DNA from: Bacillota bacterium
Lineage (GTDB): Bacteria > Bacillota_I > Bacilli_A > RF39 > UBA660
DNA: 64,000 nucleotides
Direction of reading: 5' to 3'
NCBI GenBank assembly: GCA_015059285.1
Contig: SVAS01000001.1
Span: 68,217 to 132,216, forward strand
The first letter of the stretch is position 1; the number at the start of each line of letters is the position of its first letter. The notes beneath the pieces are model-generated. The model did not search any database and was not told where the DNA came from. It saw only the letters and a list, made by a program, of their open reading frames with translations. A program made the translations under genes and the position numbers. Positions 2,877-63,621 of this stretch are shown one piece after another.

Positions 2877-4292
2877 ATGAATAAGACTAAAATAATCGCA
2901 ACCATAGGTCCAGCTAGTAGTGATAAGAATATTTTGAAGAAAATGATACAAACTGGTATAGATGTTGTACGTATTAATTTAAAGCATACTAATTATAACT
3001 TTTGTAAAGATATAATTAAAAAAATAAATGAATTAAATGCTGAATTAAAAACTAGTGTAGCTGTTATGTTAGATACAAAAGGACCTGAAGTTAGAATAGG
3101 AAAATTTGCAAGCGGACATGCTTATTTAAAAAAAGATTCTAAAATTAGAGTTTATATGGAAGAATTAGTAGGTGATAGTACTAAATTTTCTGTTAATTAT
3201 TCTGGTCTTATTAATGATGTTAAATATGATACTATTTTAAAATTAGATGATGGTTTAATAGAATTAAAAGTTTTAGATAAAGGTGATGGATATTTATTAT
3301 GTCAAGTTTTAAACGATGGCATGATTAGCGACAACAAAGGAATGAACATTCCAGACATTCATTTAAATATTCCTTTTTTATCAGACAAAGATAGAGAAGA
3401 TATTAAATTTGCTTGTAAAAATAATGTTGACTTTTTAGCGCTTTCTTTTGTAGAGAATGCTGAAGATATATTAGAAGTTAACGATTTACTAATTGGTCAT
3501 GGTAATGATCATATAGGAATAATTGCTAAAGTAGAAAACAGTAGAGCTTTAGATGATATTGATGAAATTATTAGAGTTAGTGAAGGTGTAATGGTAGCTA
3601 GAGGGGATTTAGGAGTAGAACTTCCACTTGAACGAGTTCCAGGTATTCAAAAGGCTATTATTAATAAGTGTCATTTAGCTGGAAAAGTTAGTGTAGTCGC
3701 AACTGAGATGTTATCATCTATGGAAAATGTTGTAAGACCAACTAGAGCAGAAGTATCTGATGTTGCTAATGCAGTACTTGATGGTGCTGATGCTGTTATG
3801 TTAAGTGGTGAAACTACAATTGGTAAATATCCAATTGAAACATTAGAAACAATGGAAAGAATAATTAGAGCTGCTGAGGTAGATATAGATTATTTAGATT
3901 TATTAGAAAAAATGATTAAAGTTGAAAAGCAAGATGTTACAGGAATTCTTTCTTATAACGTAGCGGAAACGGCAACTAGACTTAATTGTAAAGCTATTAT
4001 AACTCCAACAGTAAGTGGTTATACTGCTAGAAAAATTAGTAGATTTAGACCAAAATGTCCAATTATTGCCTCAACTCCTAATTATGAAACCGCAAAATCA
4101 TTAATGCTTCATTTTGGGGTTTATCCAATAATTATAAGTGAACTTAAAAACTTTGATAAAATAATTGATCATTCAAGAAAAATTACTAGTGATTTACTTG
4201 ATATTAATAAAGGAGATAAAATCATTATTACAGGTGGTTATCCTTTTAAAGAAGTAAAACATACTAATTTTATGGAAATAGAAGAATTATAA
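2877..4292 (+). CDS. pyk: pyruvate kinase
   Basis: IIATIGPAS..., MLDTKGPEVR, full PK barrel and C-terminal domain (471 aa, lacks PEP-utiliser extension). Confidence 0.9.
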   Translation: MNKTKIIATIGPASSDKNILKKMIQTGIDVVRINLKHTNYNFCKDIIKKINELNAELKTSVAVMLDTKGPEVRIGKFASGHAYLKKDSKIRVYMEELVGDSTKFSVNYSGLINDVKYDTILKLDDGLIELKVLDKGDGYLLCQVLNDGMISDNKGMNIPDIHLNIPFLSDKDREDIKFACKNNVDFLALSFVENAEDILEVNDLLIGHGNDHIGIIAKVENSRALDDIDEIIRVSEGVMVARGDLGVELPLERVPGIQKAIINKCHLAGKVSVVATEMLSSMENVVRPTRAEVSDVANAVLDGADAVMLSGETTIGKYPIETLETMERIIRAAEVDIDYLDLLEKMIKVEKQDVTGILSYNVAETATRLNCKAIITPTVSGYTARKISRFRPKCPIIASTPNYETAKSLMLHFGVYPIIISELKNFDKIIDHSRKITSDLLDINKGDKIIITGGYPFKEVKHTNFMEIEEL

Positions 4293-7307: not shown

Positions 7308-10127
7308 ATGTTTAATCATAGTGAAATAGAAAAAAAATGGAGAGAATATTGGGAAGAACACAATACTTTTAAAACTGATGTATGGGACTTTTCTAAACCA
7401 AAGTTTTATGCATTAGATATGTTTCCATATCCATCAGGAGTAGGTTTACATGCAGGACATCCTGAAGGATATACCGCAACTGATATTGTGTCTCGTATGA
7501 AAAGAATGCAAGGATATAATGTACTTCACCCAATGGGATTTGACTCTTTTGGTCTTCCTGCTGAACAATATGCAATAAGCACTGGAAATCATCCAGATGG
7601 ATTTACTAACGATAATATTAAAACTTTTAAAGAACAATTAAAATTATTGGGTTTATCTTATGATTGGGATAAAGAAGTATCAACTTGTGATCCAAATTAT
7701 TATAAATGGACACAATGGATATTTAAAAGGTTATATGAAGATGGACTTGCTAAATACGTTGATATGCCTGTAAACTGGTGTGAAGAATTAGGAACTGTAC
7801 TTGCTAATGATGAAATCATTGATGGTAAAAGTGAAAGAGGAGGATATCCTGTTGTTCGTAAAAATATGAAACAATGGGTTATAGATATACCTAAATATGC
7901 TGAAAAACTATTAGATGGTTTAAATGAAATTGATTGGCCAGAATCAACTAAAGAAATGCAAAGAAATTGGATTGGTAAAAGTATAGGAGCACATGTTAAA
8001 TTTAAAGTAAAAGATACTGATAAATCATTTACAGTATTTACTACTAGATGTGATACTTTATTTGGTGCTACTTACTGTGTTTTATCACCAGAACATGAAC
8101 TTGTAGATTTAATTACAACTAGTGATAAAAAAGAAGAAGTAGATGCTTATAAAAAGGTATGTGCTACTAAATCAGAAATGGAAAGAACAGAGCTCAATAA
8201 AGAAAAAACAGGTGTATTTATAGGAGCATATGCTATTAATCCTGTTAATAATAAAGAAATTCCTATTTGGATTTCAGATTACGTTCTAGCAACCTATGGA
8301 ACAGGAGCTATTATGGCAGTTCCTGCTCATGATGAAAGAGACTATGAATTTGCTAAAAAATTTAATATTGATATTATTCAAGTATTAGAAGAAGTTACAG
8401 GAACTCCTCATGAAAACGAATCTACAAAAAATAGTATCGTAGCTATTTTATATGATGAAAAAAACAATAATTATTTAACAATCAATTGGGGTAATTTAGG
8501 TGGTAGATTATTTATTGGGGGAAGCATTAAAGAAGGTGAAACACCTTTAGAATGCGCTATTAGAGAAGTAAAAGAAGAAACAGGCTATGTAAATATAGAA
8601 TTATTACAAGAATTACCTAAAATTAATCATCATTATTATGCTTATAATAAAGATAAATATTTTAATATTGAAAGTACTGGTTTTGTTTTCAAATTAGTTA
8701 ATGATGAAAAAATAGAACAAAACTTAGATGAAGATGAAAAATTCACTGTAGAATGGGTTTCAGAAGAAACAGTAAATAAAGAAATTACTGAACAATTACA
8801 TAAAAAGACTTATGAATATTATTTAAATAATGGTGCTATGTGTGGAGATGGTATTCACATTAATTCTGACTTTTTAAATGGTTTAAATAAAGAAGATGCT
8901 ATAAATAAAATGACTGAGTGGCTAGAAGAAAATAAGTTTGGTAATAAACAAATAAATTATCGTTTAAGGGAATGGATTTTTGCCCGTCAAAGATATTGGG
9001 GAGAACCAATACCAGTAGTTCATTTTGAAGATGGAACAAGTGCATCCATAGACGATTCTGAATTACCTTTAGTACTTCCAGAATTAGAAGATTATAGTCC
9101 AAGTAAAAGTGGAGCATCTCCACTTGAAAAAGCAACTGATTGGGTAAATGTAGAAATAGATGGTAAAAAAGCAAAAAGAGAAACTAGTACAATGCCTGGT
9201 TCAGCGGGTTCTAGTTGGTATTTCTTAAGATATATTGACCCACATAATGAAAATGCAATAGCAGATAAAAAACTATTAGAACATTGGTTACCAGTAGATC
9301 TTTATGTAGGTGGACCAGAACATGCAGTAGGTCATTTACTTTATTCTAGAATGTGGAATAACTATTTATATGATATAGGAGTTGTTCCAGTAAAAGAACC
9401 ATTTAAAAAATTAGTACATCAAGGAATGATATTAGGTGAAAATGGAATTAAAATGGGTAAAAGATATCCAGAATTTGCTGTTAACCCTAATGACATTGTA
9501 AAAGAATATGGTGCTGATACATTAAGGCTTTATGAAATGTTTATGGGACCTTTAGAAGCTGATAAACCATGGAGTAAAAAAGGTGTTGAAGGAGCTAGAA
9601 GATTTTTGGATCGTATATATAGACTATATACAGAAGAAAATAAAATTCAAGAAACACAAAATACAAATTTAGAAAAAATCTACAATCAAACAGTTAAAAA
9701 AGTAACAGAAGATTATGAAACATTAAACTTTAATACAGCAATTAGTAGTATGATGATATTCGTAAATGCAGTTTATAAAGAAGACATATTCCCAAAAGAA
9801 TATGCAGAAGGATTTGTTAAATTATTAAATCCAGTAGCCCCTTACTTAGCTGAAGAATTATGGAACTTATTAGGTCATAATGATACAATTGCATACGAAT
9901 CTTGGCCTACTTATGATGAAACTAAAATTGTAGATGAAACTTATACTATGATTGTACAAGTTAATGGTAAAGTACGTGGAAAAATAGAAGTTTCTACTGA
10001 TACAACAAATGACCAAATGGAAGAACTTGCTAAAACAAATGAAAATGTTATTAAAAATATTGAGGGAAAAGAAATTGTTAAAGTAATTGTTGTTCCTAAA
10101 AAATTAGTTAATATTGTAGTAAAATAA
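7308..10127 (+). CDS. leuS: leucyl-tRNA synthetase with inserted Nudix hydrolase domain
   Basis: Aligns end to end with B. subtilis LeuRS ([12 protein letters not shown] motif, KMGKR KMSKS motif), but about 145 extra residues lie between FEFAKKF and [14 protein letters not shown] and contain the Nudix box [23 protein letters not shown]. Confidence 0.95.
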
Positions 10128-10159: not shown

Positions 10160-10212
10160 ATTTATGTTGTACTTCTGTTCTAAATAATAAAAGTATGTAT
10201 AATAAAACTTGT
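10160..10212 (+). promoter_or_regulatory. conserved promoter of pilin-like paralog 1 (extended -10 TGTATAAT)
   Basis: tttatgttgtacttctgttc...gtatgTATAATaaaacttgttagaataggagtg is nearly identical to the region upstream of paralog 2. Confidence 0.6.
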
Positions 10213-10230
10213 TAGAATAGGAGTGAGTTT

Positions 10231-11388: not shown

Positions 11389-12777
11389 ATGTATGATGTA
11401 GTAATTGTTGGGGCAGGACCTGCTGGTATGTTTTCTGCTTATGAATTAATGGAAAATAATCCTAAATTAAAAGTATTATTAATAGATAAAGGTAAATTCG
11501 CATCTAATCGAGTTTGTCCTATGAAAAAAACAGGTAAATGTGTTAATTGTAATCCATGCGGAATATTATCTGGTTATGGTGGTGCTGGTACTTTTTCAGA
11601 TGGTAAATTAAATTTTATACCTAAATTAGGTAAATCAGATTTATTTAAATATATGAGTATTAGTGATGCTAATAAATTAATAGATGATACAGAAAAAATA
11701 TTTAATAAATTTAATATGGATAGTGATACTTATCCTACTAATATGGAAGAAGCAAGAAAAATAGGAGAAAAGATTGCTAAAGAAGGTGCTAATTTATTAA
11801 TTATAAAACAAAAACATTTAGGTTCGGATAAACTTCCTACTTATATTTCTGATTTTACTAATTATTTAAAAGAAAAAGGCGTAGAAGTTTTAGAAAATGC
11901 TGATGTGATTGATATTGAAGAAAATATTAATTATATCGTAAAATATAAAGAAAATGGTATTGATAAAGAAGTAAAAGCTAAATATGTTGTAGTAGCACCT
12001 GGTAGAACAGGAGCTAAGTGGGTACAAGAACTTGCTGATAAATATAAAATACCATATACTTCTCAAAGTATAGAAATAGGGGTTAGAGTAGAAGTTAGAA
12101 AAGAAGTTATGAAAGATTTATGTTCTATTATTTATGATCCTACAATATTTATTAAAACAGATACTTATAATGATCAAATAAGAACTTTTTGTACTAATCC
12201 AGAAGGTTTTGTGGCTAAAGAAAATTATTATGGATATATATGTGTGAATGGGCATGCTTTAAAAGATATTAAATCTAATAATTCTAATTTTGCATTTATT
12301 TCTAAAGTAGATTTAACTCATCCTGTAACTAATACTAGAGAATACGGTGAATCAATTGCTAAAATTGCCAATACACTTGGAGATGGAAAACCAATTGTTC
12401 AATCATTAAAAGATTTAAAAATGGGTAGACGTTCTACTATTGAAAGAATTAGTAGAGGTTTTATAGAACCTACTTTAAAAGATGTAGTAGCTGGAGATTT
12501 AGCATTAGTTTTACCTCATCGTATTATTAAAAATATTTTAGAGGGCTTAGAAACATTAGATAAAATTATTCCAGGTGTTAATAATGGAGAGACTTTATTA
12601 TATGGCCCTGAAATTAAATTCTTTAGTAATGAAATAACAACTGATAATAATATGAAATTAGAAGGTCATAATATTTATTTTATAGGTGATGGTGCTGGTA
12701 AAGCAGGAAATATTGTAGCTGCGGCCGCAACTGGACTTATTGCTTCTCGTGATATTTTAAGAAGGGAACAAATATGA
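11389..12777 (+). CDS. FAD-dependent oxidoreductase (COG2509-like)
   Basis: N-terminal Rossmann fold VVIVGAGPAGMFSA, Cys cluster CPMKKTGKCVNCNPCG, C-terminal GDGAG. Confidence 0.7.
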   Translation: MYDVVIVGAGPAGMFSAYELMENNPKLKVLLIDKGKFASNRVCPMKKTGKCVNCNPCGILSGYGGAGTFSDGKLNFIPKLGKSDLFKYMSISDANKLIDDTEKIFNKFNMDSDTYPTNMEEARKIGEKIAKEGANLLIIKQKHLGSDKLPTYISDFTNYLKEKGVEVLENADVIDIEENINYIVKYKENGIDKEVKAKYVVVAPGRTGAKWVQELADKYKIPYTSQSIEIGVRVEVRKEVMKDLCSIIYDPTIFIKTDTYNDQIRTFCTNPEGFVAKENYYGYICVNGHALKDIKSNNSNFAFISKVDLTHPVTNTREYGESIAKIANTLGDGKPIVQSLKDLKMGRRSTIERISRGFIEPTLKDVVAGDLALVLPHRIIKNILEGLETLDKIIPGVNNGETLLYGPEIKFFSNEITTDNNMKLEGHNIYFIGDGAGKAGNIVAAAATGLIASRDILRREQI

Positions 12778-26679: not shown

Positions 26680-26740
26680 TTTGCAATTTATGTTGTACTT
26701 CTATTCTAAAAAGTAAAAGGATGTATAATAAAACTTGTTA
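26680..26740 (+). promoter_or_regulatory. conserved promoter of pilin-like paralog 2
   Basis: atttatgttgtacttctattctaaaaagtaaaaggaTGTATAATaaaacttgttagaataggagtg is nearly identical to the region upstream of paralog 1. Confidence 0.6.
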
Positions 26741-26756
26741 GAATAGGAGTGGGAAA

Positions 26757-48193: not shown

Positions 48194-49336
48194 ATGAAAA
48201 TACTTAAAAAAGATAATCAAGAACTTGACGTAAAAAAAATTAATGAAGTTGTTGGAGTGTCTAAAAGGATTCTTAAAATAGCTTATATTTTGTTTATTGT
48301 TTTAGCTATCTATGTTTTTATTAAGGTAAGCAAAGAACTAAATATAATGAATTTTTTAATAACACTTTTGAAAATAGTTTCACCACTATTTATTGGTATT
48401 GTTATAGCATGGCTATTTAATCCGATTGTTACATATTTACAAAAAAAAGGTATGAGAAGAGGTTTAGGAGCAACACTTTCATATTTTGCATTAGTTGGTT
48501 TATTAACTATTGTAATTTGGTCTATAGTGCCAACCTTATCTGAACAAATAAATGATTTTGCTGGTATGATACCACAATTATTCGATACTATAAAGGAGTG
48601 GATTGATACTATTTTTGAAGGATTAAATAATATTGAAAGTTTTGATGCTCTTGCTATCAAATCCGATTTATTTAAAGCCATTGAAGAATTTGGGGTTAAT
48701 TTAACTAATTCACTTCCAACGATGGTAGTTAATATTATTAGTTCATTGTTTTCAGGACTTGGTACAATTTTAATTGGGTTAGTGATAGGATTTTATTTAT
48801 TAATTAGTGTTGATGGAACTGATAATCTAATTAATTTATTACCTAAGAAGATGCAAGAGACAACTCGTGATTTATTAACTGAAATAGATGGTTCTTTTAG
48901 AAGTTTTGTTCAAGGGGCGCTTTTAGATTCAACATTCGTATTTATTATTACATCTATTGGATTTTCTTTAATAGGATTAAAAGCACCACTATTCTTTGGA
49001 CTTTTCTGTGGAATTACTAATGTTATTCCATATGCAGGACCTTATATAGGTGGGGCACCTGCTGTTATAGTAGGTTTTTCACAAGGAATTCCAACAGGAA
49101 TATTAACTTTAGTGGTAATTGTTTTAATTCAATTTTTAGAAGGTAATTTCTTACAACCTTTAATAATGAGTAAAACAACTAAATTACATCCTGTTACAAT
49201 CATGTTAGGTCTTTTAGTCTTTGGTTATTTCTGGGGAATTATTGGTATGGTTATTTCAACTCCAATAATTGCTGCTTCTAAAGCAATTTTGATGTTTTTA
49301 GACGAAAAATATGATATACTATCATTTAGTGATTAA
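48194..49336 (+). CDS. AI-2E family transporter (UPF0118/PerM)
   Basis: 8 TM topology and conserved Gly-rich C-terminal half typical of AI-2E. Confidence 0.7.
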   Translation: MKILKKDNQELDVKKINEVVGVSKRILKIAYILFIVLAIYVFIKVSKELNIMNFLITLLKIVSPLFIGIVIAWLFNPIVTYLQKKGMRRGLGATLSYFALVGLLTIVIWSIVPTLSEQINDFAGMIPQLFDTIKEWIDTIFEGLNNIESFDALAIKSDLFKAIEEFGVNLTNSLPTMVVNIISSLFSGLGTILIGLVIGFYLLISVDGTDNLINLLPKKMQETTRDLLTEIDGSFRSFVQGALLDSTFVFIITSIGFSLIGLKAPLFFGLFCGITNVIPYAGPYIGGAPAVIVGFSQGIPTGILTLVVIVLIQFLEGNFLQPLIMSKTTKLHPVTIMLGLLVFGYFWGIIGMVISTPIIAASKAILMFLDEKYDILSFSD

Positions 49337-49371
49337 AGCGATGAAGAAAGAAAGTAGAATAATTTGTTTTT

Positions 49372-49530
49372 AAAGAGAGTTAGTGGTTGGTGGAAACTAA
49401 TAAATAAATTATTTGAAAGCTACTTTCTGAGTATAGTAAAAACTATCGGAAAAATCCGTTATCAAAATTAAGAACAAATTAGGATGGTACCACGGTTTTT
49501 TCGTTCCTAGAAAATAACCGTGGTTTTTTT
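49372..49530 (+). promoter_or_regulatory. T-box riboswitch leader (Ala specifier GCU) upstream of the dNMP-kinase-like/cmk/alaS operon
   Basis: agagagttagtggttggtggaaac, gaaaGCUa specifier context at 49429-49431, T-box ggatggtaccacgg, terminator ccacggtt...aaccgtgg plus U7. Confidence 0.85.
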
Positions 49531-49542
49531 ATAGGAGGATTT

Positions 49543-50094
49543 ATGGAGTTTAATAAAAGAAATACTAAAATTTACATCTTATCTGGTAAAGCTAAAAGCG
49601 GTAAGGATTTAGTAAGTAAAATTATCACTAATTATTATCGTGATAAAAAATGTATATGTCTTTCATATTCATATTATCTTAAAGATTATATAAAAAGAAT
49701 TACTGGATGGGATGGTAGTGAAGAGAATAAACCTAGAGAAATGTTACAAAAGGTTGGTATTGAACTTATAAAAAATAAAATAAATAATAAGCTGTTTATA
49801 AATAGATTATTAGAAGATATTGATGTTTTTTCTTATTTTTATGATATTATAGTAGTCACCGATGCAAGGTTAATAGAAGAAGTTGAAATACCAAAAGAAA
49901 AGTTAGATAATGTTATAACAATTAGAATTAATAGAGATAATATTGATAATAATTTGACAAATGAACAAAAGAGTCATTTAACAGAAATAGCTTTAGATAA
50001 TTATTCTAATTTTGACTATATTATTGATAATAATAAAGATTATAGTTATTTAGAAAATAAAGTAAATAAGATATTGGAGGGTAATTATGAGTAA
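49543..50094 (+). CDS. phage T4-type deoxynucleoside monophosphate kinase-like P-loop protein
   Basis: Walker A LSGKAKSGKD with Asp after GK, as in T4 gp1 dNMP kinase (LSGVKRSGKD); 183 aa. Confidence 0.55.
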   Translation: MEFNKRNTKIYILSGKAKSGKDLVSKIITNYYRDKKCICLSYSYYLKDYIKRITGWDGSEENKPREMLQKVGIELIKNKINNKLFINRLLEDIDVFSYFYDIIVVTDARLIEEVEIPKEKLDNVITIRINRDNIDNNLTNEQKSHLTEIALDNYSNFDYIIDNNKDYSYLENKVNKILEGNYE

Positions 50095-50737
50095 AATAGT
50101 TGCGATAGATGGTCCTGCTGGAAGTGGTAAAGGAACAGTTGCTGAAATACTTTCAGAAAAATGTAATTTAATCAATATTGATACAGGAGCTACTTATAGA
50201 TGTGTAGCACTAGCCGCCTTAAATAATAATTTAACTTTAGATAATGTAGATGAAATAGTAGAATTATCTGGTAAAATCAAAATAGAATTTACACCTGATA
50301 AACGTGTTTTATTAGATAATAAAGATGTAACTGATGCAATTAGAAGTAAAGAAGTAACTAGTATAGTGTCTCCTATTTCTAGTATTTTAAAAGTTAGAGA
50401 AAACATGGTTAAACTTCAAAGAGAAATGGCAAAAAACTATGATGTTGTAATGGAGGGAAGAGATATTACAACAGTAGTTTTACCAAATGCTAATTATAAA
50501 TTTTATTTAGATGCCACATTAGAAGAAAGAGCAAATAGAAGATATAAACAATATCAAGAAAAAGGAATTGATATGACTTTAGAAGAAATAAAAGAAAATA
50601 TATCAAAAAGAGATTATAATGATATGCATAAAGAAGTGGGTTCACTAATTAGAACAGATGAACAAGTATATATAGATTCTACTAATATGACGATTGAAGA
50701 AGTAGTAAATAAAATGATAGAAGTAATTGAGGAGTGA
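50087..50737 (+). CDS. cmk: cytidylate kinase
   Basis: IAIDGPAGSGKGT, full Cmk fold. Confidence 0.9.
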   Translation: MSKIVAIDGPAGSGKGTVAEILSEKCNLINIDTGATYRCVALAALNNNLTLDNVDEIVELSGKIKIEFTPDKRVLLDNKDVTDAIRSKEVTSIVSPISSILKVRENMVKLQREMAKNYDVVMEGRDITTVVLPNANYKFYLDATLEERANRRYKQYQEKGIDMTLEEIKENISKRDYNDMHKEVGSLIRTDEQVYIDSTNMTIEEVVNKMIEVIEE

Positions 50738-50741
50738 TATA

Positions 50742-52490
50742 ATGAATTTAAAAGATTTATATATTGATTTTTTTGTTAGTAAAGGGCATAAACAAATACC
50801 TTCTGCGCCTGTAATACCTGAAAATGACCCTTCAGTGCTATTTAATACAGCAGGTATGCAACCTTTAATTCCATATTTAATGGGTCAAGCTCATCCATAT
50901 GGAAAAAGATTAGTTGATTATCAAAAATGCATTAGAACTAATGATTTAGATAGTATTGGAGATACAACTCATCATACTTTTTTTGAAATGTTAGGTAATT
51001 GGAGTTTAGGCGATTATTTTAAAAAGGAAAGTATTTCTTGGAGTTTTGAATTTTTAACAAGTGTTTTAAAAATACCTGTTGAAAAACTAGCTGTAACAGT
51101 ATTTGCAGGTAATAATGATATCCCTGAGGATACTGAATCTATTGAAATTTGGAAAAGTTTAGGAATAAAAGAAGGAAGGATTGCTAAAACAGTAGAAGAT
51201 AATTTTTGGATTGCAGGTGAAACAGGACCTTGTGGACCAGATACTGAAATATTTTATTTCCGTAGTGAAGATGAAATTCCTGAAATATTTGATCCAGAAG
51301 ATAATCGTTGGGTAGAAATTTGGAATAATGTTTTTATGCAATATAATAAAAGTTTAGATGGAAGTATTTCTGAACTTCCAAATAAAAATGTTGATACAGG
51401 AATGGGTGTTGAAAGAGTTGTAGCAATATTAGAAGGTGTTAATGATAACTATACAACTTCTATTTGGAAAGATGTTATAAATAAAATTGAAGAATTATCA
51501 AATATTAAATATGAAGAAAATAAAGAAAGTATGCGTATTATAGCGGATCATTTAAGAACAGCTGTATTTATCTCTGCTGACCCAACTGGTATAAAACCTT
51601 CTAATACTGACCAAGGCTATATTTTAAGAAGATTAATTCGTAGAGCTATTAGACATGCTAAAAAATTAAATATAGATATGAATAGTGATTGGGAACAAGA
51701 GATAGCTTTAATTATTTTAGATAAATATTCAAAATATTACAGTGAATTAGAAGCTAATAAACAAGTAGTATTAGAAGTATTAAAAAATGAAAGAATTAAA
51801 TTTAATCGTACTTTAGAAAAAGGTTTAAGAGAATTTGAAAAAATAGCTAGTAATATTACAGATGGAAAACTAAATAAAGATTTAGCTTTTAAACTTTATG
51901 ATACTTATGGTTTTCCAATTGAACTTACAGTAGAACTAGCAAGTGAATTAAATTTATTAGTAGATGTAGATGGATTTAAAGAAAAATTTAAAGCACATCA
52001 AGAACTTTCAAGAGCAGGAGCTAGTGCTAAATTTAAAGGTGGTCTAGCTGGAGATGGAGAGGCTGAAACTAAATATCATACAGCAACACATTTACTTAAT
52101 GCTGCTTTAAAAGTTGTTGTAAATGAAGATGTTCATCAAAAAGGAAGTAATATTACATCTGAAAGGATGCGTTTTGACTTTTCTTGTGACCATAAATTAA
52201 CAGCTGAAGAAAAACAAAAAGTAGAAGAGTTAGTAAATAAGTGGATTAAAGAAGAAATTCCTATAACTAAGGAAGAAATGAATAAAGAAGAAGCTTTAAA
52301 ATCAGGTGCTGAGTGTATGTTCATAGAAAAATATCCAGATGTTGTAACAGTATATAGTATTGGTAATATTTCTAAAGAATTATGTGGTGGACCACATGTA
52401 GAAAATACTAAAGAATTAGGTGTTTTTGAAATTAAAAAAGAAGAAGCTAGTAGTGCTGGTGTAAGAAGAATAAAAGCTATTTTAAAATAA
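50742..52490 (+). CDS. alaS: minimal alanyl-tRNA synthetase (583 aa: catalytic, tRNA-recognition and editing core; no beta-barrel, no C-Ala)
   Basis: FNTAGM, FEMLGNWSLGDYFK, GVERV class II motifs; the editing HTATHLL ... CGGPHVENT ... AGVRRIKA follows directly after AKFKGG. Confidence 0.85.
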   Translation: MNLKDLYIDFFVSKGHKQIPSAPVIPENDPSVLFNTAGMQPLIPYLMGQAHPYGKRLVDYQKCIRTNDLDSIGDTTHHTFFEMLGNWSLGDYFKKESISWSFEFLTSVLKIPVEKLAVTVFAGNNDIPEDTESIEIWKSLGIKEGRIAKTVEDNFWIAGETGPCGPDTEIFYFRSEDEIPEIFDPEDNRWVEIWNNVFMQYNKSLDGSISELPNKNVDTGMGVERVVAILEGVNDNYTTSIWKDVINKIEELSNIKYEENKESMRIIADHLRTAVFISADPTGIKPSNTDQGYILRRLIRRAIRHAKKLNIDMNSDWEQEIALIILDKYSKYYSELEANKQVVLEVLKNERIKFNRTLEKGLREFEKIASNITDGKLNKDLAFKLYDTYGFPIELTVELASELNLLVDVDGFKEKFKAHQELSRAGASAKFKGGLAGDGEAETKYHTATHLLNAALKVVVNEDVHQKGSNITSERMRFDFSCDHKLTAEEKQKVEELVNKWIKEEIPITKEEMNKEEALKSGAECMFIEKYPDVVTVYSIGNISKELCGGPHVENTKELGVFEIKKEEASSAGVRRIKAILK

Positions 52491-52491
52491 C

Positions 52492-52513
52492 AGATTTTAT
52501 ATCTGTTTTTTTT
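52492..52513 (+). terminator. alaS terminator
   Basis: cagattttatatctg hairpin plus T8. Confidence 0.7.
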
Positions 52514-52519
52514 GTTTGT

Positions 52520-52640
52520 GATTTATGTTATAGAAACCACTTTAATTATAGTTTTATGTATAATAAAAATGTCAACGATAGCAAAATAAAACATAATGTT
52601 ATTGACAACAAAATATTTATGTTATAAAATTATTTTAGAA
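52520..52640 (+). promoter_or_regulatory. conserved dual promoter and long leader of pilin-like paralog 3
   Basis: extended -10 TGTATAAT at 52557-52564; TTGACA-16-TATAAA at 52602-52629; repeated tTATGTTATA motifs; about 85% identical to the region upstream of paralog 4. Confidence 0.6.
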
Positions 52641-52718
52641 CAATATGTTATACAAGGTAAATAAATGTATAAAAGGATAAAAGGTTGTTCAAAATAAGAA
52701 AGAAGGAGTGGAAAGAAA

Positions 52719-53711
52719 ATGAGACAAAACAAAAAAGGATTTACTTTAATTGAATTACTAGCAGTAATAGTGATACTAGCAATAATAGCACTAATAGCAG
52801 TACCAGTTATAATGAATATAATAAGTAGTGCAAGAGAAAGTGCATTTAAAGATACTGCTTATGGACTTGTGAAAGCTGGAGAGTTATACTACGCAAATCA
52901 ATTACTGACAACAGGTGGGATGATAGAAGATAAAGTTTTTACTTTTGATGATGGAAATGTTGAACCAACAGGTTTAGATATCAAAGGAAATTTGCCAACA
53001 ACTGGTTCAATGACAATTACCAAAGATGGAAGTGTGATTTTAAACGTTTCAGATGGTCAATTTCTTGCAACTAAAAACGAGCATCAAACTGATGTTGTTG
53101 TTATAAAAGGGAATGTTAGCAAACCTATTCCAAATTCAAATATAATCTCAGACAATAAGTGTGCAGTAGATGAAACTCAAATCTGTGCGGAAGGTACTTT
53201 AATAACTTACAAAGTAAATGATAGTCAAACTTATGACTTTTATGTAATAAAAGATACAGGTAGATTATTAACTTTGATTATGAATAGTAATTTAGGATTA
53301 AATGATGTTTCTTGGAATACTTCTGGTTTTGCTAGTGATGGTCCTACTGGGGTACTGAAAGCTTTAGAAGAACGCACGAATAATTGGACAAATGTAAATA
53401 TAATTTCTGAATATACTTATGTAGATACAAATGGAAATAACCAATATTCAGCCTTTACTAAAACTAATGTTAGATCTAGATTATTATCAAGTACAGAATA
53501 TGATATCAGTAAAACTTGGTTAACTTCAAATTTAGTAAATTATGATGCTTGTGGCTGGACTGAAAATGACGCTTGTGGTTATTGGACTGGAGAATCTATT
53601 TCTAATACTCCTGAAGGTTTTGGTTTATGCCTTACTTCTTATGGACCATATACATGTTCTGGAATGTATGGTATACGTCCAGTAATTGAAGTATCTAAAT
53701 TAGCAAATTAA
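52719..53711 (+). CDS. type IV pilin-like protein paralog 3 (330 aa)
   Basis: MRQNKKGFTLIELLAVIVILAIIALIAVP; C-terminal TLIMNSNLG, WTNVNI, CGYWTG, YGIRPVIEVSK. Confidence 0.85.
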   Translation: MRQNKKGFTLIELLAVIVILAIIALIAVPVIMNIISSARESAFKDTAYGLVKAGELYYANQLLTTGGMIEDKVFTFDDGNVEPTGLDIKGNLPTTGSMTITKDGSVILNVSDGQFLATKNEHQTDVVVIKGNVSKPIPNSNIISDNKCAVDETQICAEGTLITYKVNDSQTYDFYVIKDTGRLLTLIMNSNLGLNDVSWNTSGFASDGPTGVLKALEERTNNWTNVNIISEYTYVDTNGNNQYSAFTKTNVRSRLLSSTEYDISKTWLTSNLVNYDACGWTENDACGYWTGESISNTPEGFGLCLTSYGPYTCSGMYGIRPVIEVSKLAN

Positions 53712-53766
53712 GATGTTTATCAAATAGTGTTAGTGAACAATGATTTGATATGGATAACTGTATAAG

Positions 53767-53796
53767 AAAGGATGATAAAAATCATCCTTTTATAAT
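53767..53796 (+). terminator. terminator after paralog 3
   Basis: aaaggatgataaaaatcatccttttat; the same hairpin core follows the dacF-like gene upstream of paralog 4. Confidence 0.65.
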
Positions 53797-53804
53797 GCCT
53801 TTAA

Positions 53805-54030
53805 TCAAGAAAATTCGTGCGATAAAGTAATCATACTTTCTATAACAAAAGGTAATTCTTTTAAGTATTTTAACTTTACAAATTTTTTAACCCCCCATTT
53901 AATAATATTGTTATCAGAATCATTAACAGAACCACAATGTGGACAAAATTTGTGTTTATAGGTTAAAATTGTTTCAATTACCTTATAATTTTTAATAACT
54001 TTTTCTTCAATGTTATTTAAAATAAATAGA
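53805..54030 (-). pseudogene. probable ISL3-family transposase N-terminal remnant (zinc-finger region only)
   Basis: The minus-strand frame gives NIEEKVIKNYKVIETILTYKHKFCPHCGSVNDSDNNIIKWGVKKFVKLKYLKELPFVIE, which resembles the ISL3 transposase N-terminal zinc-finger region; it has no start codon and no catalytic part. Confidence 0.35.
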
Positions 54031-54498
54031 TTAAGATATTTAATATTTAGTAAATTTTATATATAATTATTATTAGATATGTTTCAGTGTTTGTTTTGTT
54101 GCTTACATTGTATCAGACTAAACATCTTTTTTAACAAAAAATAGTTGAGCGAGATTTTCTAACCAACACTATTTATAATACAACCCAAACAAAACTTCAA
54201 GGCTTGTTTTGTTATAATATGAAGAAAGTACTTCTATAGAAAACCTATTATTCACTTAGTAGTAAGTGAATTTAAAGTTACATAAACTAAAGGTTGATGC
54301 AGTGAGTTTAATTTAGGTGAGTTTATATTGAAAGATGAACCAAATAATGATAAGATTTTTTAAAATAGTAAAGGTCAATTAATTATAATAGATTTAAACT
54401 AGGTACATAATAATGTTTTTTTAATAAATACAAATACTAATTGAAAAAAGTTATTATTCGTGATAAAATGTAGGTGTATTCATAAAGTAGGTGAAATT

Positions 54499-54738
54499 AT
54501 GGGTGAAACAAAAATATATAGTGCTGATGAAATTCAAAATGCTTTAATTGCTGATGTTATTAAAGAAGTTGCAAGTATTTTAGAAGAGAAAGGTTATAAT
54601 CCTATAAATCAAATAGTTGGTTATTTGATGAGTGGAGATCCTGGTTATATTTCTAGTTATAAAGATGCTAGAAAAAAAATTTCTAAATTAGATAGAACTA
54701 AAATACTAAATGTATTAGTAAGTGATTTTGTTAAATAA
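54499..54738 (+). CDS. ireB: IreB-family regulatory phosphoprotein (UPF0297, YrzL)
   Basis: KGYNPINQIVGYLMSGDPGYISSYKDARK matches UPF0297; synteny with ruvX-yrzB-mltG. Confidence 0.85.
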   Translation: MGETKIYSADEIQNALIADVIKEVASILEEKGYNPINQIVGYLMSGDPGYISSYKDARKKISKLDRTKILNVLVSDFVK

Positions 54739-61194: not shown

Positions 61195-62346
61195 ATGAAA
61201 AAGATATTAGTTTTATTACTCATTAGTTTTATGTTTATTCCAAATATAAAAGCAGAGGAGGCAAGTACACTTGCTGAAAATAGCAAAAGTGCTATTTTAT
61301 TAGAACCAACAACAGGTGAAATTATATATGAAAAAAATATTCATGAAAAATTACCTCCTGCTTCTATGACTAAATTAATGTCAATGTTACTCATTATGGA
61401 AAGTATTGATAAAGGAGTTATTAAATGGGATGAAATGGTTACCGTATCCTCAAATGCATCAGGAATGGGAGGAAGTCAAATACTACTTGAAACTGGAGAA
61501 CAAATGACAGTAGAAGATTTATTTAAAGGAGTAGCAATCGCAAGTGGTAATGATGCTGTAGTCGCTCTAGCTGAAAAAATTGCTGGTACTGAAGAAATGT
61601 TTGTTAAAATGATGAATGATAAAGTAAAAGAATTAGGATTAAAAAACACTAATTTTAAAAATCCTCATGGATTAGATGCGGCTAACCATTATTCTACTGC
61701 TTATGACATGGCTATGATTGCTAAAGAACTTATTAAACATGAAAAAGTATTAGAATATACATCTATATATGAAACATATTTAAGACAAAACTTACCAACT
61801 AAAATATGGCTTGTTAATACCAATAGATTAGTACGTTTTTATAGTGGTTTAGATGGACTTAAAACAGGGTATACTGGAGAGGCTGGTTATTGTTTAACTT
61901 TTACAGCTAAAAATGGTAATATGAGATTACTTGGTGTTGTTATGGGAGAACCAACTAGTGATACAAGAAATGAAGAAGTAAAAGAAATGCTTGATTATGG
62001 ATTTGCACAATATGAAGTAGAAACAATGTTATCAACTAAAAGTATTTTAGATACTAAAGAAGTAGATAAAGGTAAAAAAAGATATGTTAATTTAGTACCA
62101 AAAGAAGATATTAATTTTTTAAATAAAAAAACAGATGGCAAAAGAAATGCTAGTTATGAGGTTAAAATAGATAATTTAAAAGCTCCTTTAAAAGTAGGCG
62201 ATAAAGTAGGTACATTAATTATTAAAGAAAATAATAACACTAGGAAAGTAGATATAACTGTATCAGAAAACATAGAAAAAGCTAATATATTAGAATTATT
62301 TATAAGACATTTGGAGGATATAATAACTGGTAATATTAAGTTTTAA
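61195..62346 (+). CDS. D-alanyl-D-alanine carboxypeptidase (PBP5/DacF-like, S11 family)
   Basis: signal peptide, SMTKLM (SxxK), SGN, KTG motifs. Confidence 0.85.
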   Translation: MKKILVLLLISFMFIPNIKAEEASTLAENSKSAILLEPTTGEIIYEKNIHEKLPPASMTKLMSMLLIMESIDKGVIKWDEMVTVSSNASGMGGSQILLETGEQMTVEDLFKGVAIASGNDAVVALAEKIAGTEEMFVKMMNDKVKELGLKNTNFKNPHGLDAANHYSTAYDMAMIAKELIKHEKVLEYTSIYETYLRQNLPTKIWLVNTNRLVRFYSGLDGLKTGYTGEAGYCLTFTAKNGNMRLLGVVMGEPTSDTRNEEVKEMLDYGFAQYEVETMLSTKSILDTKEVDKGKKRYVNLVPKEDINFLNKKTDGKRNASYEVKIDNLKAPLKVGDKVGTLIIKENNNTRKVDITVSENIEKANILELFIRHLEDIITGNIKF

Positions 62347-62372
62347 AGGATGATTAAATTCATCCTTTTATT
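62345..62372 (+). terminator. terminator after the carboxypeptidase gene
   Basis: aaaggatgattaaattcatcctttt hairpin. Confidence 0.65.
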
Positions 62373-62377
62373 TATGT

Positions 62378-62500
62378 TATAGAAACCACTTCAAATAAAG
62401 TTTATGTATAATAAATATGTCAATGATAGTAAAGTAAAACAATATATTATTGACACCGAAATGTTTATGTTATAAAATTAATCTAGAACAATATGTTATA
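62378..62500 (+). promoter_or_regulatory. conserved dual promoter and long leader of pilin-like paralog 4
   Basis: about 85% identical to the region upstream of paralog 3, including TGTATAAT, TTGACA...TATAAA and repeated TTATGTTATA motifs. Confidence 0.6.
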
Positions 62501-62565
62501 CAAACTAAACAAATGCATAAAAGAATAAAAAGTTGTTCAAGATAAGAAAGAAGGAGTGGAATAGT

Positions 62566-63621
62566 ATGAAGAAAAAAGGATTTACATTAATAGAATTACT
62601 AGCAGTGATAGTAATACTAGCAATAATAGCATTAATAGCAGTACCAGTTATAATGAATATCATAAGTAGTGCAAGAGAAAGTGCATTTGAAGATACTGCA
62701 TATGGACTTATTGATGCAGGAGAGATGTATTATGCAAGTTCATTATTAGAAAATGGAATGACTAGTGATGTAGAGTTCACAATTGAAGATGGAAAGTTTG
62801 TAGGAGAAAACAAACTAGAAGTAAAAGGAGCACTTCCAACAAATGGAAAAATAACAGTAACAAAAGATGGAAAAGTTGCTATTGCTGTAAATAATGGAGC
62901 ACATTGCGTAACAAAAGCAACAAGCGAAAGTGCAATCACAACAGTTAAATATGAAGGAAGTTGTGAATATAAAAAAGCAGCAAATCCAATCATCACATCA
63001 ACTGAGGCATGTATCACAAATGCAAACGAAACATGTAGTGAAGACGCAATAAAAGCAGGAATTGCAGTAAATGTTAAAGTAAACGAAAAAGAAGAAGCAA
63101 AAACATTCTATGTAGTAAAAGACGATGCTACAACTAACACATTAACATTAATCATGGATAGAAATATTGGAGAAACAGTAGCTTGGATTAGTGAAAAAGA
63201 CTATGGATGTGGAGAAGCCGGAGATTATTGTTCAACAAACGAAAAAGGGCCACTAACAGCCTTAACTTACTTAGAAAGTAAAACAAGTAGTTGGACAAAC
63301 ATCCCAGCAAAAACATATACATTAGCAGACGATCAAGGACAATACACAATAGAAAGAACAAATGCAAGAGCTCGAATGTTAACACATGATGAAGCAATAG
63401 ATTTGTTAGGATGTGTAGAAAATGACACAGGATGTCCAGCATGGTTGTATGGGAATTTAGGAACTAGTAACCCACCATTTGGCTTCTGGCTAAGCTCTGC
63501 TCCTGCGGACGATGCTTACTTCGCTTGGTTCGTGGGCAGCGGCGGTGGCGTTGACGACGGCGTCATCACTGGCTTCTCCGGTGTGCGCCCAGTTATCGAA
63601 ATCTCAAAATCTATCATCTAG
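62566..63621 (+). CDS. type IV pilin-like protein paralog 4 (351 aa)
   Basis: MKKKGFTLIELLAVIVILAIIALIAVP; about 65% identical to paralog 1; C-terminal SGVRPVIEISKSII; ATG at 62566 with GGAGTGG RBS. Confidence 0.85.
   Translation: MKKKGFTLIELLAVIVILAIIALIAVPVIMNIISSARESAFEDTAYGLIDAGEMYYASSLLENGMTSDVEFTIEDGKFVGENKLEVKGALPTNGKITVTKDGKVAIAVNNGAHCVTKATSESAITTVKYEGSCEYKKAANPIITSTEACITNANETCSEDAIKAGIAVNVKVNEKEEAKTFYVVKDDATTNTLTLIMDRNIGETVAWISEKDYGCGEAGDYCSTNEKGPLTALTYLESKTSSWTNIPAKTYTLADDQGQYTIERTNARARMLTHDEAIDLLGCVENDTGCPAWLYGNLGTSNPPFGFWLSSAPADDAYFAWFVGSGGGVDDGVITGFSGVRPVIEISKSII

Follow-up and report, generated by a model that had tools for sequence, protein, structure and literature searches.

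The window analysed here is a 64-kb stretch of bacterial DNA with a G+C content of 26%, in which nearly all genes lie on the plus strand; the contigs matching it are labelled uncultured Firmicutes or Bacilli and derive from gut metagenomes. The analysis concerns the interval between alaS and ireB, in which a type IV pilin-like gene (paralog 3) and the remnant of an ISL3-family insertion sequence (IS) have been identified. Behind ireB follow ruvX, DUF1292/yrzB, YceG/mltG, a methyltransferase, two U32 peptidases and greA. The Pfam matches in series (IreB, RuvX, DUF1292, YceG, Methyltransf_3, U32, U32, GreA) reproduce, in order and orientation, the Bacillus-type arrangement alaS-ireB(yrzL)-ruvX(yrrK)-yrzB-mltG-yrrM-U32-U32-greA, as an earlier annotation made from the letters only (the sequence-only reading) had proposed. 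The same annotation placed about 2 kb between the end of alaS at 52490 and the start of ireB at 54499; the gap measures 2008 bp and holds the pilin-like open reading frame (ORF) together with a transposase relic on the minus strand. The features of the locus are listed below in window coordinates.

50727-52490, plus strand: alaS (Pfam tRNA-synt_2c and tRNA_SAD)
52491-52513, plus strand: alaS intrinsic terminator, hairpin CAGATTTTATATCTG and an 8-T run, read from the sequence; left conserved edge of the variable gap
52514-52718, plus strand: pilin promoter and leader of the "long" upstream type (TTGACA-17-TAAAAT at 52602-52630, GGAG at 52705-52708)
52719-53711, plus strand: paralog 3, type IV pilin-like protein of 330 amino acids (aa) (Pfam N_methyl, TIGR02532, AlphaFold model)
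53704-53711, no strand: left copy of a candidate 8-bp target duplication, CAAATTAA, including the pilin stop codon; 6/8 positions shared with 54186-54193
53711/53712-54185, minus strand: internally deleted, dead ISL3-family IS of 474 bp (full length about 1.45 kb), from blastn against the L164 element
53711-53736, plus strand: right inverted repeat (IRR), partly decayed, 21/26 to the consensus GGTTCTTTGTCAAATAGTGTTGGTGA
53767-53790, no strand: hairpin with a 10-bp stem, AAAGGATGAT-AAAA-ATCATCCTTT, 55 nt past the pilin stop codon (hairpin scan)
53805-54080, minus strand: transposase pseudogene (translations, BLASTP to L164)
54160-54185, minus strand: left inverted repeat (IRL), GGTTGTATTATAAATAGTGTTGGT..., 24/24 to the consensus GGTTGTATTATAAATAGTGTTGGTGA; one exact match in the window
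54186-54193, no strand: right copy of the candidate 8-bp target duplication, CAAACAAA, outside IRL
54186-54438, no strand: orphan non-coding DNA, 253 bp, with the right duplication copy and two hairpins
54439-54498, plus strand: ireB promoter and 5' untranslated region (UTR), right conserved edge of the gap (alignment to relatives, promoter scan)
54499-54738, plus strand: ireB, 79 aa, ATG at 54499 (PF06135 IreB, E value 2e-28), first gene of the conserved ireB-ruvX-yrzB-mltG block

The product of paralog 3 possesses the prepilin N_methyl motif (PF07963, E value 5e-9; TIGR02532, E value 2e-8) and a class III signal peptide, MRQNKKG|FTLIE, the N-terminus reading MRQNKKG|FTLIELLAVIVILAIIALIAVPV. 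The features of this type of signal have all been found: (i) a short basic leader; (ii) a G|F cleavage site; (iii) Glu at +5; (iv) a hydrophobic helix. Residues F8, T9, L10 and E12 are invariant across 66 homologues. The AlphaFold model, built from 66 homologues with a mean predicted local distance difference test score (pLDDT) of 86, shows a helix at residues 10-62, a beta-sheet body at 72-130 and an extra C-terminal module at about 145-330. The predicted architecture is the lollipop fold of pilins, with a long N-terminal helix and a beta-sheet. In a sequence-profile search of the PDB only the N-terminal part found matches, namely the pilins MshA, PilE1 and PilA, while a Foldseek search of the model against the PDB returned no significant whole-chain match; the C-terminal module has no solved relative by either search. 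The promoter that had been proposed for the gene was recovered by the promoter scan at 52602-52630, with 11 of 12 positions matching.

The family of paralog 3 comprises more than 5000 homologues. Its nearest member, apart from the gene's own 98% variant, is 46% identical, and the paralogs of the same genome reach 38-45%. Family members bear the NCBI names "prepilin-type" or "DUF1566 domain-containing". Paralog 3 itself has no match to PF07603 Lcl_C/DUF1566 at E <= 1; this domain is found at E <= 0.01 in 4 of 66 family members, and 6 of 66 match DUF6273, a faint similarity. The protein is best described as a modular type IV pilin-like surface protein.

Closer relatives were reached via AlaS homologues of 84-88% identity. 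In the closest one found (L083, AlaS 88% identical) alaS and ireB are 120 bp apart, with no pilin gene, and 38 bp separate the alaS terminator from the ireB promoter. Since this gap is so short and both of its flanks are conserved, the segment 52512-54438 (1927 bp), reaching from the alaS terminator to the ireB promoter, is lineage-specific. The sequence-only reading would have been refuted by relatives that had no pilin gene but still about 2 kb between alaS and ireB, or by a fragment without similarity to transposases; L083 lacks both the pilin gene and the 2-kb gap, the fragment does resemble a transposase (below), and both checks thus favour that reading. On the left, the hairpin of the alaS terminator is kept in L083 and L084, the alignment block stopping at 52511. 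On the right, the ireB promoter (TTGAAA-17-TAAAAT with TG, 54441-54469, promoter scan) lies in a promoter/5' UTR block that is identical to L083 at 67 of 72 positions and is also kept in L084 and L210. Rfam scans (whole window at the gathering threshold; 52400-54600 in E-value mode) and tRNA scans gave no match inside the alaS-ireB interval. The sequence TGTTTTTTT is present at both edges of the 1.9-kb segment (52504-52513 and 54414-54422), its right-hand copy resembling the post-terminator T-run and spacer of L083. As a duplication footprint this pair is not trusted in a genome of 26% G+C, where it may be a mere T-run.

Two further relatives carry other genes at the same site. The gap of L084 (AlaS 87%) contains an unrelated 321-aa gene without Pfam match. 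In L210 (AlaS 88%) three unrelated genes fill it, whose products measure 160, 1002 and 285 aa; the 285-aa product matches Bro-N weakly. Because unrelated genes occupy the site in these two genomes, the gap is a small hot spot with different cargo per species. A separate observation was made in L210 (7536-12543), where a sequence similar to the alaS terminator at 18 of 19 positions is located about 3.9 kb 3' of alaS (about 11448-11466); the 160-aa and 1002-aa genes may have been inserted between alaS and its terminator. In L086 (AlaS 84%) the alaS-ireB adjacency is lost. Upstream of alaS, relatives at 70-79% AlaS identity retain the AI-2E transporter, the 183-aa kinase-like gene and cmk; ireB directly follows alaS in none of them, and the downstream genes vary by genome. 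The view of alaS and ireB as normally contiguous genes is accordingly true of the nearest relatives, as in L083, but not of any relative inspected at or below 84% AlaS identity.

Within the species the arrangement is constant. The same neighbours are present in 23 of 23 contigs read for the identical pilin protein and in 23 of 23 read for the identical AlaS protein, two sets which probably overlap, and the arrangement also occurs in L209, a strain 97% identical over the alaS-ireB interval.

A pilin gene behind alaS might also be ancestral in the clade, the empty site of L083 and the cargo of L084 and L210 then being products of deletion and replacement. Such a history would account for L005 and L008 (AlaS 76-77%), in which a prepilin-type gene lies directly 3' of alaS, and for L003, in which one lies two genes downstream. 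However, these genes belong to other subfamilies, of which only the N-terminal ~100 aa can be aligned, and they are not followed by ireB. The identity values given above also speak against an old resident gene, for the nearest homologue of paralog 3 beyond its own variant stands at only 46%, with the same-genome paralogs next. Furthermore, the three closest relatives display three different states, and the empty one preserves the spacing from terminator to promoter. An ancestral position of the pilin gene is considered unlikely.

The second constituent of the segment is the IS relic. The minus-strand frame 53805-54030, assigned to an ISL3 transposase in the sequence-only reading, translates as quoted there, but the frame is longer, running from 54080 down to 53805. 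The assignment itself was borne out by BLASTP: the fragment is 57% identical over 58 aa (E value 5e-18) to residues 17-74 of a 423-aa transposase encoded by L164, an ORF with a PF01610 DDE_Tnp_ISL3 match (E value 1e-41). Scanned against Pfam and NCBIfam, the 75-aa fragment matched no ISL3 model and yielded nothing beyond unspecific zinc-ribbon noise; PF14690 Zn_ribbon_ISL3 had no match in it at E <= 1, only the first CxxC being left. The link to ISL3 was reached solely through the contig of protein P0001, the terminal repeat and an exhaustive profile search. A word-indexed search of 5.8 billion proteins yielded a single homologue, P0001, of 54 aa and with an intact N-terminus. On its 511-bp contig (L082) homology to the minus strand of the window begins exactly at GGTTGTATTATAAATAGTGTTGG, a sequence with a single occurrence in the window (54185-54163) and none in shuffles. 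More than 120 metagenome contigs contain a 21-mer of this terminal repeat, in many cases some 30-50 nt short of a contig end. In L164 the repeat forms an inverted pair 1459 bp apart that encloses the 423-aa ORF.

The exhaustive profile search with the fragment and P0001 produced 163 matches. All six full-length ones that were scanned are ISL3 transposases (E values 1e-42 to 1e-53), and five of the six also match Zn_ribbon_ISL3, two above the curated cut-off, in the region where the fragment aligns; PF14690 covers residues ~43-97 in P0169, P0184, P0191 and P0218. The nearest annotated plasmid elements are ISL3-family members (ISSau8, IS1181) with only 35-37% identity. By these similarities the relic is a member of the ISL3 family; its lineage, distant and as yet unnamed, comes from uncultured Bacilli of gut and rumen.

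Alignment by blastn to the L164 element shows how the relic is built. Positions 54185-53865 correspond to IS 1-343 (71% identity) and 53873-53717 to IS 1298-1452 (74%). IS positions 344-1297 are gone, about 950 bp in all, and with them transposase residues ~76-394 of 423, comprising the helix-turn-helix (HTH) and DDE domains. Both terminal repeats could be recognised against consensus ends derived from about 45 full-length copies. The frame from 54080 reads ISNNNYI*NLLNIKYLNLFILNN..., in which the ATG has changed to ATA (54080-54078) and codon 8, Leu in P0001 and L164, to an in-frame TAA. About 75 N-terminal codons, including the first zinc-ribbon CxxC, are fused to about the last 20 codons at a junction near 53865-53873. 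The absence of a start codon and of a catalytic domain, remarked on earlier, is real. The remnant is not, as had been supposed, the N-terminal part only, for both inverted repeats and the 3' end are kept around an internal deletion.

Matches spanning this deletion junction came from contigs of this species alone, and there from the same locus. L099 (196 bp) and L162 (700 bp) carry other short derivatives of the IS. The possibility that the relic represents a family of miniature inverted-repeat transposable elements (MITEs) was rejected, as no amplified copies with the same deletion are present and the relic is a solo one. It has diverged by 17-34% from every sampled copy, and since only two of its positions differ between the window strain and L209, both insertion and decay should predate the split of the strains.

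These data also bear on whether the locus might be a chimeric join made at a repeated IS during assembly or binning. IS ends often break or mis-join metagenome assemblies, and many of the repeat matches indeed lie at contig ends. The arrangement is nevertheless identical in both sets of 23 contigs, which stem from different samples and assemblers, and in the strain 3% diverged, and a relic about 25-30% diverged from all other copies is not a collapsible repeat. An artefact of this kind is regarded as extremely unlikely.

The sequences bordering the relic were compared as a possible target duplication. CAAATTAA and CAAACAAA agree at 6 of 8 positions, with an empirical P of 0.014 per register, two registers having been considered; perfect 8-bp duplications, which ISL3 elements are expected to generate, flank at least nine other copies of this IS. 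The comparison gives modest evidence that the two flanks were once contiguous and that the IS was inserted into an existing pilin 3' end. By simple insertion, the flanks before the event would have been joined as ...GCAAATTAA-ACTTCAAGG..., with the junction ...AAATTAGCAAATTAA-ACTTCAAGGCTTGTTTTGTT.

Three distinct hairpins whose stems reach 8 bp or more lie between 53712 and 54498. The scan counted six nested matches at separate starts against 0.69 start positions expected from shuffles, a number reached in 2 of 300 shuffles; on this basis terminator-like elements are enriched in the region. The terminator scan missed all three hairpins, which have few G-C pairs. The first, at 53767-53790, had been taken for the terminator of the pilin gene. 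It belongs to the IS: it lies within the region aligned to IS 1298-1452, and full-length copies have its counterpart where the transposase ORF stops (1722-1745 in L164). A similar hairpin was noticed at 62345-62371, after the dacA-like gene and 5' of paralog 4, which is identical to the IS-borne 53767-53793 at 25 of 27 positions; this likeness could be due to chance between terminators, or could be another IS trace. The second hairpin (54188-54213, 8-bp stem) is located at the right duplication copy and is probably the original pilin terminator. The third is the 8-bp-stem hairpin described by the sequence-only reading, which is present, although at 54251-54270, 2 nt off the position given, and its stem can be extended to 9 bp (54250-54271).

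The stretch between the relic and the ireB promoter had been estimated at about 400 bp of non-coding DNA. Part of this (54081-54185) is the 5' end of the IS, and only 253 bp (54186-54438) remain as orphan DNA. The orphan is identical in strain L209 and lacks a long ORF; blastn and tblastx against 208 loci found no homologue of it outside the same species. Folding of 255 nt (54186-54440) is not unusual (z = 0.13). Similarity of the 24 nt at 54413-54436 to the IS interior (87-92%) was dismissed as low-complexity chance: no IS end adjoins these nucleotides, and the place where one would be expected is within the conserved ireB promoter.

Paralog 3 is one of four prepilin-type ORFs in the window, located after leuS, pheT, alaS and a dacA-like gene, and at least nine paralogs lie on the same 575-kb contig. 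The seven copies inspected are all solitary and start a few nt 3' of the terminator of the upstream operon. In 7 of 7 the conserved upstream region opens with ATTTATGTT(A/G)TA, a few nt past the T-run of that terminator. Two forms of this region can be distinguished: a long one of about 200 nt with two promoter-like sites (paralogs 3 and 4 and both L212 copies, two further paralogs of the same genome) and a short one of about 75 nt (paralogs 1 and 2 and L213). The regions are located as follows:

10160-10230, 26690-26756, 52514-52718 and 62372-62565: upstream regions of the paralogs in the window
L212, ~840-1042 and ~3800-4000: upstream regions of two paralogs
L213, ~3925-4000: upstream region of one paralog

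The conserved region may represent a shared regulatory leader. None of the seven copies is adjoined by pilus assembly genes, whether for a prepilin peptidase or for an assembly ATPase or platform, and the neighbourhood of paralog 2, searched for pilus machinery, contains housekeeping and sporulation genes only. The six copies other than paralog 3 have the same cassette boundaries with no IS adjoining them, as judged in the window from its single IRL match and in L212 and L213 from gene lists. In L213, a 126-aa ORF directly 5' of the paralog (3526-3906) has a C-terminus resembling the pilin body (...LKIQGNLPKEGYIKIYNN...KGYCVTKK) and could belong to the family as a short or truncated form.

The paralogs are related beyond their coding parts. 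Promoter, leader and the initial third of paralog 3 (52521-53031) share 80% identity with 62370-62872, a stretch that runs from the DNA upstream of paralog 4 into the gene. Between the window and L209 (4815-5470), differences cluster in 52533-53189, the pilin promoter and 5' third of the gene, and reach 11% in the promoter region; divergence is 0.4% in the IS relic, 0% in the orphan DNA and 0-6% in the other flanking genes. Over about 150 bp (52612-52761) the L209 sequence resembles paralog 4 (84-98%) more than the window allele (72-92%), and a 7-nt indel within this tract turns the N-terminus from MRQNKK into MKKK. This mosaic suggests recombination or gene conversion among paralogs, and because of that fit a recombination-type duplication appears the most likely route by which the gene was gained.

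It may be asked whether the cassettes, each consisting of promoter, leader and ORF, form a dispersing unit of their own, terminator-proximal and driven by recombination, which multiplies and shuffles surface adhesin genes without a recognisable transposase. The idea draws on the common ATTTATGTT(A/G)TA start, the species-specific gain between alaS and ireB, the 5' divergence from L209 and the switch to a paralog-4 tract; it is considered rather unlikely.

Diversity-generating retroelements (DGRs) were considered as well. The window paralogs were rejected as DGR targets, since the window contains no homologue of a reverse transcriptase (RT) or Avd and the protein is identical in 23 of 23 contigs. 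A different situation was observed in L008 (9849-13478, AlaS 77%). There, alaS is followed by a 563-aa prepilin-type gene with a Gly/Ser/Tyr-rich C-terminus ending in ...FRVVF, then by a 125-aa ORF, a bAvd gene (PF22296, E value 3e-21) and a reverse transcriptase (RVT_1, E value 3e-17). Judging from its gene content, this locus looks like a DGR aimed at a pilin-like protein; a pair of template and variable repeats (TR/VR) was not found in 13.6 kb of L008.

Taken together, we read the segment 52512-54438 as three layers, a self-contained pilin cassette, a later ISL3 insertion and an orphan 3' flank, and hold this reading with good confidence. The first layer is the cassette itself (shared promoter and leader, 330-aa ORF), one of many solitary copies standing just past the terminators of housekeeping operons. 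It would have been copied into the site, probably by duplication of a paralog through recombination and not by transposition with this IS. As the second layer, an ISL3 element would later have entered the DNA at the pilin stop codon and generated an 8-bp duplication. This element has since been stripped of about 950 bp of its interior, of the start codon and of its reading frame, and is now an immobile relic of 474 bp whose hairpin is the first terminator-like structure 3' of the pilin ORF. The 253-bp orphan, as the third layer, probably represents what was once the 3' flank of the cassette with its terminator. The anatomy, the ISL3 identity, the empty site of a relative and the occurrence in every contig read from this species are shown directly, and we infer the order of events (pilin first, IS second), the roles of the terminators and the route of cassette copying from the layout and similarities described above.

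The IS is most likely a later passenger and not the vehicle of the pilin gene, because the gene lies wholly outside the IS ends, only one pair of such ends is present in 64 kb and six paralogs are free of IS. The sequence-only reading had regarded the relic as direct evidence that a family member arrived by insertion or mobility. The relic does testify to a mobility event at the locus, but not to the arrival of the pilin gene, which is outside the IS ends, while the flanks of the IS look like its own target duplication. The opposite view, that the ISL3 element carried the gene in as part of a composite transposon or by one-ended or read-through transposition, could appeal to the IS abutting the pilin stop codon, to the absence of both from the empty site of L083 and to the abundance of active ISL3 copies in related gut metagenomes. 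Yet the inverted repeats enclose IS sequence only, a second end-pair is missing from the window, the flanks resemble the 8-bp duplication of the element itself and the other six paralogs show the same cassette boundaries without any IS. In addition, the 5' edge of the cassette is common to the paralogs and starts right past the alaS terminator. Transport by the IS is accordingly judged very unlikely.

Several points weigh against the three-layer scheme. The target duplication is imperfect (6/8), the end of IRR overlaps the pilin stop codon by one ambiguous base, and the order of pilin before IS rests on modest evidence. The alaS-ireB adjacency is absent from relatives at or below 84% AlaS identity, so that a contiguous ancestor rests on one empty-site genome and on the Bacillus-type order known from the literature, and the distant relatives L005 and L008 also have a pilin-like gene directly 3' of alaS. 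Among the fetched loci no donor for the cassette or for the 253-bp orphan was found, nor any junction signature, and no strain was found with the pilin gene and without the IS.

Apart from the variable gap, some features of the aminoacyl-tRNA synthetase genes in the window were recorded. Residues 377-503 of the leucyl-tRNA synthetase (LeuRS, 939 aa, 7308-10127) form an inserted NUDIX domain (PF00293, E value 1.9e-15, exceeding the gathering score) that stands immediately behind the CP1 editing domain (219-372). Such a fusion or insertion is unusual in this enzyme. The alanyl-tRNA synthetase (AlaRS, 50727-52490) is of a short form of 582-587 aa, with catalytic and tRNA_SAD domains and no C-terminal C-Ala/DHHA1. 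Homologues of the same length, at 50-56% identity, occur in DPANN archaea, bacteria of the candidate phyla radiation (CPR), Spirochaetes and Lentisphaeria. A T-box leader (49332-49511, 102.9 bits) stands 5' of a three-gene unit (49543-52490) that consists of a 183-aa P-mevalo_kinase/DNMK-like gene, cmk and alaS, and three further T-boxes precede leuS, pheS/pheT and the operon of a 1033-aa class I synthetase.

The locus provides a clean, dated example of the expansion of a pilin-like surface protein family in uncultured gut Bacilli with small genomes: the site is empty in a sister species and filled here, and the decayed IS marks the age of the event. In addition, consensus ends, an 8-bp duplication and a length of about 1.45 kb now define a previously unnamed ISL3 lineage, which is widespread in metagenomes of gut and rumen and is the cause of many assembly breaks. 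For annotation it is relevant that Pfam and NCBIfam miss the relic and that the apparent pilin terminator is derived from the IS. The general understanding of insertion sequences or of pilins is unchanged.

Compared to the known ISL3 family (IS1181 and ISSau8 of Staphylococcus; Enterococcus plasmid elements), the full-length relatives of the relic are alike in their size of about 1.45 kb, their single transposase of ~423 aa (a DDE_Tnp_ISL3 domain and, at the N-terminus, a CxxC zinc ribbon), their inverted repeats of about 25 bp starting with GG and their 8-bp target duplications. They differ in transposase identity, which to the annotated plasmid-borne enzymes is 35-37%, and the window copy is dead. 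The relic resembles internal-deletion derivatives of IS and MITEs in keeping both terminal repeats without a working transposase; unlike MITEs, its deletion is confined to one locus of one species.

The pilin-like protein presumably resembles the modular type IV pilins such as PilB and PilC of Streptococcus sanguinis. In common with modular type IV pilins and ComGC-type pseudopilins are the G|FTLIE signal with Glu5, the hydrophobic N-terminal helix, the beta-sheet body and the grafted C-terminal module. In contrast to modular type IV pilins, the family is highly multicopy and consists of scattered solitary genes, with no assembly genes adjoining the seven copies.

Chromosomal integration hot spots between conserved core genes are an established concept of comparative genomics. 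The alaS-ireB gap corresponds to them in that the core flanks are the same while four close species carry nothing, one gene, three genes, or the pilin gene and the IS. It differs in being small, in having neither integrase nor tRNA and in receiving single-gene cargo, not an island. The content of the segment is of known kinds only, that is, the ISL3 family, deletion derivatives of IS, type IV pilin-like modular proteins and integration hot spots, and the locus represents a neat but unremarkable case of a variable spot that has gained a gene.

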